Below are positions 33,533-35,351 of a DNA stretch of 64,000 bases, one piece after another. The stretch comes from an uncultured Pseudobdellovibrionaceae bacterium (GTDB lineage: Bacteria; Bdellovibrionota; FAC87; UBA2466). The notes beneath the pieces are model-generated. The model did no database searches, was not told the origin of the DNA, and was given only the letters and a program-made list of their open reading frames with translations. The stretch lies in contig CAYNEF010000001.1 of NCBI GenBank assembly GCA_964396165.1, forward strand, positions 65,990 to 129,989, read 5' to 3'. The translations under genes and the position numbers were made by a program. The stretch's first letter is position 1, and every line of letters starts with the position of its first letter.

Positions 33533-33604
33533 TGCGAGGAGTTGTCCTGGTACTTCGGGCTCATAACCCGAAGGTCGTAGGTTCAAATCCTACCCCCGCA
33601 ACCA
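33533..33604 (+). tRNA. tRNA-like gene, anticodon CAT (Met/Ile2), encoded CCA
   Basis: Hand fold: anticodon stem tcggg/cccga with loop cTCATAa; T-arm gtagg-TTCAAAT-cctac; acceptor 3' strand ccccgca + A + CCA. The 5' acceptor tgcgagg has one mismatch and the D-arm is non-canonical by eye. Confidence 0.5.
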
Positions 33605-33676
33605 ATCTTTAACCTTTGAGAAAAACGTCGAATGCAGATATTCCGGTCGAGATCTGCTGCAGGTAAATTACATTCG

Positions 33677-35047
33677 CTAAGGTCTAAAAATACCACCAGT
33701 GTTGATTGTTCCACTGGAATCTTGTCCTCCAAACACTACCATCTTGGTGCCCGTCCATATTGCGGTATGAGCGTTGCGGATAGAGGGAGCAGTCGTAGTA
33801 GTAATTGTCGTCCAGGAGTTAGTAGTAGGATTAAATAGTCCGCCGGTGTTGTTATACACAGTGCTTCCGTCATCCCCTGCAAATACGAGAAGCTGAGTAC
33901 CTGTCCAAATACCTGTATGATAATAACGAATGCTTGGGGCGCCGGTAGTTGTAGTGAGAGTCCAAGAGTTGGCGCTTAAGTCATATACGCCACCTGTATT
34001 GATTCCACTTGTACCGTCCCACCCTCCAAACACCACCATTTTTGTCCCAGTCCAAACAGCACTATGTATCCGACGAATGTCCGGAGCACCTGTAGTGGTA
34101 GACAGCGTCCAGGTATCTGTCGCAGGATCATATGCGCCACCCGTATTTAAGAAAAGGCCCGCGCCTCGATCGCCTCCAAATAGTAAAGCTTTTTCGCCTG
34201 TCCAATTAGCAGTGTGATTTGCACGTATGCCAGGAGCACCTAACGTAGTCGTAGCTGTCCATGTATCGGTTGCGGGATTATATAGTCCACCCGTGTTTAC
34301 CCTCCCACCACCACCTCCTCCTCCGTGCACAAACATTTTACTTCCAGTCCATGTAGCCGTATGTAACCGGCGAATGCTAGGTGCGGCAGTTGTCGAGAGT
34401 GCACTCCAAGTATCAAGTTGCGGATCATAACTGCCACCCGTATTGAGATAAGCCCCATTGTATCCACCAAAGACAAGCATCTTAGAATCTGTCCAAACTG
34501 CAGAATGGTATGCACGAATATCGGGAGCACCGGTTGTAGTAATCTCTGTCCAAGAGTCAGTAGATGGATCGTATGCCCCTCCAGTATTGAGATAACTACT
34601 TGCAACTCCCTGTCCTCCGAACACTAATACTTTTGAGCCTGTCCAGACTGCCGTATGCACATAGCGAATAGCTGGAGCGCCCGTGGTCGTACTGGAAATC
34701 CACTTGGCAAAATAAGTAAATAAACCAGTGCCGGTTCCGCTTTGAGTATCCGGATTAGTAACGGTGATGTCAGCACTTCCTGCCGTGCCGCCTGGAGTTG
34801 TACACGTAATGGTGTAGTAATTGACGATCGTGGGTGAAGTACAGGGACTGCCTGCTACAGTTACTGTTGCATTGAGAGAAAAACCGAGGCCGGTTATTGT
34901 AATAACTGTTCCGCCAAAAGTGGAATCAGTCTCTGGGGTCACGCTAGTTACGGTAGGCGCTGGTGCAATAGTGCTTGATGAACTAGTTACTCCATTGCCA
35001 CAACCAGATATTAGTAAGAGATTTAAAAAAAAATAAACTATCTTCAT
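33677..35047 (-). CDS. Lipoprotein with IPT/TIG domain and about seven Kelch-like beta-propeller repeats
   Basis: Lipobox LISGCG. IPT-like TVTSVTPETDSTFGGTVITITGLGF. Repeats GAP.IR..HTA.WTG.KM.VFGG...NTGG.Y.P.TD.W. Confidence 0.7.
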   Translation of the reverse strand: MKIVYFFLNLLLISGCGNGVTSSSSTIAPAPTVTSVTPETDSTFGGTVITITGLGFSLNATVTVAGSPCTSPTIVNYYTITCTTPGGTAGSADITVTNPDTQSGTGTGLFTYFAKWISSTTTGAPAIRYVHTAVWTGSKVLVFGGQGVASSYLNTGGAYDPSTDSWTEITTTGAPDIRAYHSAVWTDSKMLVFGGYNGAYLNTGGSYDPQLDTWSALSTTAAPSIRRLHTATWTGSKMFVHGGGGGGGRVNTGGLYNPATDTWTATTTLGAPGIRANHTANWTGEKALLFGGDRGAGLFLNTGGAYDPATDTWTLSTTTGAPDIRRIHSAVWTGTKMVVFGGWDGTSGINTGGVYDLSANSWTLTTTTGAPSIRYYHTGIWTGTQLLVFAGDDGSTVYNNTGGLFNPTTNSWTTITTTTAPSIRNAHTAIWTGTKMVVFGGQDSSGTINTGGIFRP

Positions 35048-35325
35048 CATTTCGGTTAGACGCATATTTTTTAAGTCCTGCTTATTTAAAAACTAATGTA
35101 TCTATATCGTCTCCTCGGAGAATCTTATTTATAGTTGGATAATGCGAATATAAACACAATTCTGGTACGAACGGTAGAGCTGCTGTGGGCACCTCAACGG
35201 GGAGGGCAATTACCAAGTTGAGGTGTGAGGTGGTGGGCCGATGTCGATTTTCCTACTCCCGAGCTGCCATGATTTAGACAAGAAGTAATCTTACTAAGGA
35301 CAAAGTCAAAAGATCTAAATCCTGT

Positions 35326-35351
35326 GGTTCAAATCCTACCCCGCAACCAAT
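35326..35351 (+). repeat. 26/27-bp direct repeat of the tRNA 3' end (att-like); partner at 33580..33606
   Basis: GGTTCAAATCCTACC(C)CCGCAACCAAT occurs twice in the same orientation. The second copy lacks a foldable T-stem, so it is a partial copy. Confidence 0.55.

Follow-up and report, generated by a model that had tools for sequence, protein, structure and literature searches.

The 64-kb window analyzed here, a stretch of 64,000 nucleotides on contig CAYNEF010000001.1 of an uncultured Pseudobdellovibrionaceae bacterium, harbors a tRNA-fMet-like sequence (33533-33604, + strand) and a copy of a tRNA 3' end (35326-35351), which together flank a single gene coding for a lipoprotein with Kelch repeats (33677-35065, - strand). 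These are exactly the two tRNA-derived pieces detected in the 64 kb (blastn, word size 7, canonical tRNA-fMet as query). With moderate confidence, the locus could be interpreted as the scar, no longer active, that two or more site-specific integrations left in one copy of a tRNA-fMet gene. The tRNA-like sequence is a mosaic of a canonical 3' part and a degenerate 5' part, and both tRNA pieces have exact boundaries; from these features, we infer the order and number of the integration events.

The hybrid tRNA-fMet sequence and its displaced 3' end

The tRNA-like sequence reads UGCGAGG AG UUGUCCUGGUAC U UCGGG CUCAUAA CCCGA AGGUC GUAGG UUCAAAU CCUAC CCCCGCA ACCA on the + strand. Its 3' part (33555-33604, +) consists of the anticodon stem and loop, variable loop, T arm, acceptor 3' strand, and CCA, all of canonical form. 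The 5' part (33533-33554, +) is degenerate, with an acceptor 5' strand UGCGAGG, an A5.C68 mismatch, a D-loop remnant CCTGGTA, and no D stem. The Rfam model RF00005 matched positions 33533-33601 (+) with 39.8 bits against a gathering score of 29, the CCA end being located at 33604; the alignment passed over the D arm, with 12 nt set against 15 model positions, and included one non-canonical acceptor pair. A genuine tRNA-fMet with an identical 3' 50 nt scored 64.5 bits, i.e., the tRNA-like sequence was 25 bits lower. At default thresholds, neither the whole window nor 33450-33650 yielded a tRNA with ARAGORN; only with its thresholds lowered did the program return a tRNA-Met(cat), whose acceptor stem was poor and whose D stem had two pairs, and which it flagged as a pseudogene. 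The minimum-free-energy fold showed no cloverleaf, and no sigma-70-like promoter was found upstream. Hence, of the two properties looked for in a functional bacterial tRNA, the covariance score was present and the complete cloverleaf was absent. The sequence is presumably neither expressed nor functional, and is best described as a putative hybrid initiator tRNA (tRNA-fMet) pseudogene with the anticodon CAT, a description that draws on Rfam, ARAGORN, and identity to genuine genes.

The parent gene was assigned to the initiator tRNA because the GGG/CCC anticodon stem and the CAU anticodon are present. Initiator identity, as in Escherichia coli tRNA-fMet, also includes an unpaired 1:72 position (C1xA72). 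Position 1 of the tRNA-like sequence is U, for which pairing with A72 is possible, and the 1:72 mismatch is thus missing. Sequence comparison showed that 33555-33604 (tRNA positions 27-76, from the anticodon stem to CCA) is identical in 50/50 positions to tRNA-fMet genes on three IMG/VR contigs (L015-L017), which are high in GC, quite unlike the window in composition, and bear genuine 77-nt tRNA-Met(cat) genes, one of which is the gene that scored 64.5 bits. The 5' part aligned with tRNA-fMet in 16/28 columns with 7 gap columns, while retaining traces of a tRNA in the form of 6/7 acceptor pairs and the D-loop remnant CCTGGTA. The mosaic boundary at 33554/33555 corresponds to tRNA position 26/27, i.e., the 5' edge of the anticodon stem. 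The sharp asymmetry (50/50 vs. 16/28) argues for a recombination junction, or for an element-borne attachment (att) site in which only the core is conserved, rather than for the decay of a redundant paralogue, and fits well with a mosaic pseudo-tRNA formed by integration.

The displaced 3' fragment of the tRNA gene (tDNA) at 35326..35351 (+) comprises tRNA positions ∼52-76 (the end of the T stem, the T loop, the acceptor 3' strand, and CCA) plus 2 nt. Copy A, at 33580-33606, is GGTTCAAATCCTACCCCCGCAACCAAT, and copy B, at 35326-35351, is GGTTCAAATCCTACCCC-GCAACCAAT with one C deleted. The two copies are direct repeats on the same strand and agree in 26/27 positions, the repeat boundary (33580/35326) falling inside the T stem. 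For a 24-mer of copy B with ≤3 mismatches, 0.00 chance matches were expected from shuffled sequences, and blastn showed 96% identity of copy B to canonical tRNA-fMet over 25 nt. A direct repeat of a tRNA 3' end in the correct orientation is accepted as the mark that an integrase leaves on inserting DNA into a tRNA gene, and such an origin is supported here by the sequence.

An earlier model-made reading of the same DNA, which used the letters and a list of open reading frames (ORFs) and is hereafter called the sequence-only reading, had described a tRNA-like gene with a CAT anticodon, a mismatched acceptor stem, and an odd D arm, which might be a hybrid or pseudo-tRNA formed by integration. 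The Rfam match and its alignment bear out the first three features, and the juxtaposition of 50 nt identical to initiator tRNA genes with 22 degenerate nucleotides at the 5' side agrees with the last suggestion. The ARAGORN check that it had proposed gave the result described above. It had also reported a 27-bp copy of the 3' end; the direct copy is real, being 26 nt long with a one-base deletion and not an exact 27-mer. A tRNA is recognized here by a covariance model, and the window contains just two copies of the repeat; the outcome that would have refuted that reading, no tRNA together with a generic multi-copy repeat, is thus not what the window shows.

Could the locus have arisen without any mobile element, a redundant tRNA-fMet paralogue having decayed in place and the 26-mer being a chance match or a local duplication? 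The absence of a recombinase and the native composition of the Kelch gene (both described below) agree with such a history. Neutral decay would not leave 50/50 identical columns beside a part with 16/28 aligned columns and 7 gap columns, and 0.00 copies of the repeat are expected by chance. Both boundaries fall at canonical att sublocations, and repeats of an integrase type occur upstream at the expected distance. We therefore regard decay in place as very improbable.

Two further features lie around the displaced fragment. The 260 nt that separate the Kelch start codon from the 26-mer contain a 9-bp perfect inverted repeat (CACCTCAAC...GTTGAGGTG, 18-nt loop) at 35190-35225, for which Rfam gave no match. 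A perfect 18-bp palindrome, ACCTTGCACGTGCAAGGT, follows the 26-mer at a distance of 68 nt (35419-35436) and lies upstream of a malectin/FN3 gene. Its half-sites contain TTGCAC, which is common to the GGTTGCAC repeats discussed below; ∼0.24 such palindromes are expected per 64 kb by chance. The palindrome is overlapped by a terminator-like hairpin (35434-35456) and could be an operator.

Direct repeats upstream and at other integrase-tRNA junctions

Three direct GGTTGCAC(C) repeats, with a period of 12 and then 11 nt, are located at 33386..33417 (+; Tandem Repeats Finder score 52). They end 116 nt upstream of the 5' end of the tRNA-like sequence and are the sole cluster of this motif in the window; no further copies were found beyond the tRNA-like sequence on its other side or near the 26-mer. 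A 53-codon open frame (TIASIFLRVTDPDEYWKTTQKVAPRVAPRLHEIPRK..., 33324..33482, +) reads through the repeats as ...LRVTDPDEYWKTTQKVAPRVAPRLHE... and reaches its stop 50 nt before the tRNA-like sequence. The repeats are candidates for integrase arm-type sites and/or for the remnant of a coding tail of the type 'VAPxVAP' found in integrases, and the 53-codon frame might be what decay has left of the C-terminal end of a tyrosine integrase whose gene was read in the direction of the tRNA-like sequence.

Metagenomes were scanned for the triple repeat, and 120 loci were obtained, the G before each GTT being fixed by the search pattern for the three copies of a locus. At 5/120 loci, the repeats were located 119-154 nt from a tRNA gene (tRNA-Pro, tRNA-Gln, or tRNA-Gly). 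The repeats at four loci (L056, L075, L104, and L121) form an 'LVAPxVAPxVAP' tail of ∼600-aa ORFs, and PF00589 was confirmed by Pfam in all three that were tested (L056, L075, and L104). At another locus, L026, they lie inside a 106-aa remnant ORF adjoining a tRNA-Gly gene. In IMG/VR, a double GGTTGCACC repeat was found ∼84 nt from tRNA-Arg(CCG) in 3/40 loci (L142, L153, and L176, which are proviruses), outside any convincing ORF. Taken across eight contigs, GGTTGCACC repeats with a 12-nt period occur 84-154 nt from tRNA genes (Pro, Gln, Gly, and Arg), and the repeat thus recurs at integrase-tRNA junctions elsewhere. The several metagenome and provirus contigs that carry it at tRNA genes are high in GC. 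Viral contigs gave no match for the triple repeat and none for the repeat together with an fMet anticodon loop at fixed spacing, and no gene content was common to the integrase-bearing metagenome islands and the window.

Arm-type sites are short direct repeats that flank the cores of attP sites and are bound by the N-terminal domain of the integrase (PMC3203893). The GGTTGCACC repeats are reasonable candidates for such sites, judging from their recurrence at integrase-tRNA junctions. Each GTT is preceded by a G, whichever residue is encoded, although for three copies at each locus this G was imposed by the search pattern. The repeats may be arm sites placed within the coding tail ('VAPxVAP') of integrases from a widespread family, whereby the protein tail and the DNA site would be coupled in one sequence.

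Two of the metagenome loci illustrate how such integrases are placed relative to their tRNA genes. L075 carries a 59-nt direct repeat (9989-10047 and 1943-2001, 8 kb apart) that includes 43 nt of the 3' part of tRNA-Pro, and is a classical island with the tRNA-Pro 3' fragment displaced. In L104, the integrase gene is followed by the tRNA gene on the same strand, i.e., in the orientation of the window, with 124 nt from the repeats to the tRNA 5' end against 116 nt here. Its 44-nt direct repeat (42-85 and 10606-10649, 10.5 kb away) corresponds to the 5' part of tRNA-Gln through the anticodon arm, and therefore the L104 element supplies the 5' half of the tRNA and its upstream region. The related integrases of L075 and L104 thus mark islands of opposite polarity, the 3' fragment being displaced in the one and the 5' fragment in the other. 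A further metagenome contig from the motif scan (L023) carries six tandem tRNA-Met(cat) genes within 700 nt (5135-5823).

Like L104, an example of the islands that displace the tRNA 5' part (159/3919 in the Islander survey), the window has 'VAP' repeats that aim at the tRNA 5' end on the same strand at a similar distance, and the origin of the sequence changes at the anticodon arm. L104 retains an intact PF00589 integrase and an intact tRNA, and its island ends, on the far side, at the 44-nt repeat of the 5' fragment; the window, by contrast, has lost the integrase, its tRNA-like sequence has a 5' half that is presumably non-functional, and it contains no 5' fragment.

The place in which an integrase gene might be expected is occupied by a cassette of a RES toxin and an Xre-MbcA-ParS antitoxin with its upstream region (31666..33098, -; Pfam RES and Xre_MbcA_ParS_C). 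A contig of the Logan assembly from another sample (L018) is 88% identical at the DNA level over exactly 31666-33098, with sharp ends, and carries its copy among unrelated genes without a tRNA nearby. From this comparison, the cassette is a discrete, self-contained mobile unit ending at 33098. It was considered as a marker of an island end and rejected, as a self-contained unit that occurs elsewhere without a tRNA. The RES gene has the lowest G+C content at third codon positions (GC3) of the window (0.30), and one RES homologue is annotated as Bdellovibrionales.

The bracketed Kelch gene and the insertion history

The gene between the two tRNA pieces (33677..35065, -) encodes a TIG and Kelch lipoprotein of 462 aa with an N-terminal lipobox LLISGC, a TIG/IPT domain (PF01833, E = 1.3e-15), and Kelch repeats (PF24681, E = 1.8e-76; PF01344, E = 5.4e-34); seven DNA repeats of ∼147-150 nt (∼49 aa each) are present within it. 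It is the sole ORF of ≥50 aa with a family match in 33605-35325, and this bracketed segment of 1.72 kb contains no integrase, excisionase, or any other mobility gene. The whole window was scanned for mobility genes with Pfam using ORFs of ≥110 aa, and 32886-33535 was scanned additionally in six frames; no integrase, excisionase, or transposase was found among these ORFs or frames, and PF00589 had no match among the window ORFs scanned. The bracketed segment can therefore be no more than the remainder of an element and is not a live one.

The bracketing of a Kelch/IPT lipoprotein gene was thus correctly recognized in the sequence-only reading, which had also called the propeller eukaryote-like. 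The latter does not hold: more than 3,600 database proteins matched at E ≤ 0.001, the best 120 being ∼37-53% identical, and the named homologues are from bacterial metagenome-assembled genomes (Verrucomicrobia, Planctomycetota, Acidobacteriota, and Candidatus Jettenia). Many of the JGI matches are auto-annotated as N-acetylneuraminic acid mutarotase. The homologue search yielded a broad bacterial family, with no orthologue and no syntenic locus. The protein is similar to known bacterial Kelch/IPT-TIG surface proteins (PF24681, PF01344, PF01833) in its domain content, its very strong Pfam scores, and its thousands of bacterial homologues; it differs in having no orthologue above ∼53% identity, and nothing about it is specifically eukaryotic. 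A foreign composition of the gene was considered and rejected, since its GC peak (0.478) arises at codon position 2 (GC2 0.606), as expected of a Gly/Thr/Ala/Pro-rich propeller, and its GC3 is host-like. The Kelch gene may nevertheless be imported cargo.

The sequence-only reading saw in this arrangement the classic attL/attR signature of tRNA-targeted integration. The direct tRNA 3' fragment agrees with it; an intact target tRNA, which a classical attL demands, and an integrase are absent, and at least two events are likelier than one. Islander-type tDNA fragments and pseudo-tRNAs (PMC4383910, PMC9897764) show the same direct 3'-end repeat downstream of a tRNA-like sequence and boundaries in the T stem and the anticodon stem, and partial tRNA genes left by the integration of mobile elements have been documented as mis-called tRNAs (PMC9897764). 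The covariance model still calling a partial or hybrid gene a tRNA with a low score, as seen here, is a likeness to those pseudo-tRNAs (PMC9897764). In the Islander survey, 2083 anticodon-centered and 1836 T-stem att sites were found among 3919 mapped islands, of which 3760 displace a 3' fragment and 159 a 5' fragment, and 125 tandem arrays were recorded (PMC4383910). The mosaic and repeat boundaries coincide with both of these dominant sublocations. Of the features by which Islander defines an island (PMC4383910), the displaced direct tDNA fragment is present, and the intact regenerated tDNA and the internal integrase gene are absent. Unlike Islander islands, the locus has no intact tDNA, has no integrase gene between or beside the repeats, and encloses a single gene in 1.72 kb, and it would fail the Islander filters.

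One boundary lies in the anticodon stem (33555) and the other in the T stem (33580/35326); differing in type, they argue for two integration events, and the repeats resembling an integrase tail or arm sites upstream of the tRNA-like sequence point to a second element on the left side. In the first event, at a T-stem/T-loop att site, an element would have integrated behind the tRNA and rebuilt its 3' end; the former 3' end would have been pushed downstream, to survive as the 26-nt fragment at 35326-35351. What would remain of this element is the 1.72 kb (33605-35325) with the TIG-Kelch gene and no recombinase, and the corresponding empty site would read an intact tRNA-fMet directly followed by ATTGACCAAAGCCGC.... 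In the second event, at an anticodon-loop att site, a left-hand element with an integrase gene transcribed towards the tRNA would have recombined in the anticodon arm. The tRNA-like sequence would then be the junction, pristine from the anticodon stem to CCA and with a 5' side that is element-derived or decayed and cannot be folded. The GGTTGCAC(C) repeats would be the leftover of the integrase tail or the arm-type sites of the left-hand element, whose integrase body would later have been replaced by the mobile RES-Xre cassette. A small HTH_17 ORF of the excisionase/AlpA type (28588..28803, -; 71 aa; PF12728, E = 9e-7, 29.5 bits against a cutoff of 27) is found by itself, with the second RND operon on one side and the ars operon on the other, and may be another relic of the left-hand element.

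Tandem accretion at one att site is known from integrative and conjugative elements (ICEs) as well as from integrative and mobilizable elements (IMEs), and cis-mobilizable elements (CIMEs) are att-flanked and without recombination and transfer genes. The locus resembles tandem arrays and CIMEs in its two successive direct att-type repeats and in an att-flanked segment without recombination and transfer genes, this CIME-like character of the Kelch segment holding at the sequence level only. It differs from them in that no cognate ICE or integrase was identified, one att copy has an indel, and the 'tRNA' end is defective. A simpler history would take the tRNA-like sequence as the target tRNA itself, possibly functional, and the 1.72-kb Kelch segment as an attL-attR island, excisable in trans in the manner of a CIME. 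The repeat is indeed a direct tRNA 3' fragment in the correct orientation, and the ICE/IME literature describes elements that are flanked by att sites and lack recombination genes. The precedent of L104 would further allow the tRNA-like sequence to be at its original position with the 5' half replaced from the left, in which case the Kelch segment would be an exact attL-attR bracket. As no integrase is present in the bracket or among the scanned ORFs of the 64 kb, the tRNA-like sequence is not a valid tRNA, the right-hand copy has an indel, the composition of the Kelch gene is native, and no circular or empty-site sequence occurred in the public data searched, we consider this history doubtful. 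That the Kelch cassette is still movable in trans is unlikely, because one copy has an indel and no integrase is present.

The Logan assembly of SRR12487046, an independent short-read assembly from the same organism, is 100% identical to the window, with one contig stopping at 33584 and the next starting at 33576. Such breaks are the result expected if an exact 51-nt repeat (33555-33605) exists elsewhere in the sample, assuming a de Bruijn graph with k = 31, and thus provide a hint of another copy. They fit with a bona fide tRNA-fMet gene elsewhere in the genome, and it is presumed that the genome has further intact tRNA-fMet genes. In a classical tandem array, both pieces (51 nt and 26 nt) would be displaced 3' fragments of an intact tRNA-fMet located >33.5 kb to the left, beyond the window. 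The metal-resistance region and the RES-Xre cassette would then form a large island with its right junction at the tRNA-like sequence, and the Kelch segment would be the remnant of an older island. The 51-nt block, from the anticodon stem to the 3' end, is a typical identity block of anticodon-type att sites, and tandem arrays at one tDNA are known (PMC4383910). Cargo resembling that of an island (metal resistance, toxin-antitoxin cassette, HTH_17 ORF) lies to the left, and another copy of the 51-mer is what the Logan breaks imply. This arrangement leaves the 5' half of the tRNA-like sequence unexplained, with its 6/7 acceptor pairs and CCTGGTA D loop; there is no step in GC or GC3 across the left region, protease genes of host type are interspersed (441-1211, 13049-13636, and a peptidase C25 left of the window), and no conjugation or phage genes are present. 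A tandem array of this kind is a plausible but less probable explanation. The pseudo-tRNA being at the original tRNA position with a 5' half supplied by an element, as in L104, is slightly preferred over a displaced 51-nt fragment because it would explain the presence of a tRNA-like 5' half.

Several observations weigh against a scar of two integrations. The 53-codon frame aligned to a profile of four integrase tails as 'LRVTDPDE..KVAPRVAP' (profile 'LRxTGTD..LVAPxVAP') with a non-significant E of ∼0.1, the 53-aa frame had no phmmer match in 1.84 billion representatives, and a search for an integrase remnant in 32886-33535 gave no Pfam match in six frames. With the integrases, 33324-33482 has in common only the GGTTGCAC(C)/VAP repeat and the spacing between this repeat and the tRNA; the link through GGTTGCAC rests on a short motif, and most of the 120 metagenome loci are unrelated low-complexity repeats. 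A left-hand element would be expected to have an intact partner, but neither an intact tRNA-fMet nor a displaced 5' fragment was found in the 33.5 kb to the left of the tRNA-like sequence, and the far-left genes (trypsin, peptidase C25) are host-like in appearance. The GC3 of the Kelch gene (0.364) lies inside the range of the window (0.30-0.47) and gives no independent sign of import. The Logan breaks could stem from the tRNA-fMet of another organism if SRR12487046 is a metagenome. Searches of genome contigs, metagenomes, and protein contexts revealed no empty or differently occupied site and no close relative, and since no comparator genome was found, the insertion history is read from sequence anatomy alone.

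The element class and the cassette also invite a more far-reaching interpretation. The left-hand element may be of a class in which the 5' half of the target tRNA comes from attP, the defective half supplied here having killed one copy of the initiator tRNA gene, and the Kelch gene might be an att-flanked one-gene cassette movable in trans, by which a surface lipoprotein would spread among predatory bacteria. Taken jointly with arm sites lying in the 'VAPxVAP' tail, this interpretation appears improbable.

Genomic setting and implications of the locus

The window is chromosomal in appearance, with purE/purK, SelO, sugar epimerases, and ABC transporter genes, and is rich in secreted proteases and malectin/FN3 proteins. 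The host is probably a poorly sampled, Bdellovibrionales-like bacterium. The nearest SelO is 63% identical, and the SelO relatives (61-63%) showed no synteny with the window. Divergent from the Kelch gene, a 971-aa secreted protein (35607-38522, +) contains two FN3 and malectin modules arising from an internal duplication. The search of genome contigs with this flanking malectin protein found only distant homologues (26-49% identity, in species-representative genomes) and no synteny. The predicted empty-site and junction pattern had no match in metagenomes. Secreted hydrolases are encoded at 441-1211, 13049-13636, and 45720-47405, and at 2-1492 of contig L002 (two trypsin-like proteins, a peptidase C25, and a TGase_elicitor), which fits a predatory, Bdellovibrionales-like lifestyle.

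To the left of the cassette, 1247-31505 is a dense metal/metalloid-resistance region with a GC content indistinguishable from the rest of the window. It encodes Fur, two OEP + RND (AcrB/CzcA-like) systems, a two-component system, a SulP-carbonic anhydrase, a P-type ATPase, and an extracytoplasmic function sigma factor, along with an ars-like operon of a MerR-family regulator, an ArsI-like glyoxalase, ACR3/SBF, and the low-molecular-weight phosphatase ArsC.

The phenomenon as such is well known, and the locus is an ordinary degraded example of it. Its significance is mainly for annotation: a tRNA-Met/fMet gene annotated here from a covariance-model call would be false, and an island caller applied naively might list the locus as an 'island' with one gene. 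Read as a decayed integration hotspot, the tRNA-like sequence would be marked as a pseudogene, and the Kelch lipoprotein, the RES-Xre cassette, and perhaps the neighboring metal-resistance genes would be flagged as lying within a region shaped by mobile elements. The GGTTGCACC repeat that recurs at integrase-tRNA junctions offers a small lead for the mapping of att sites.

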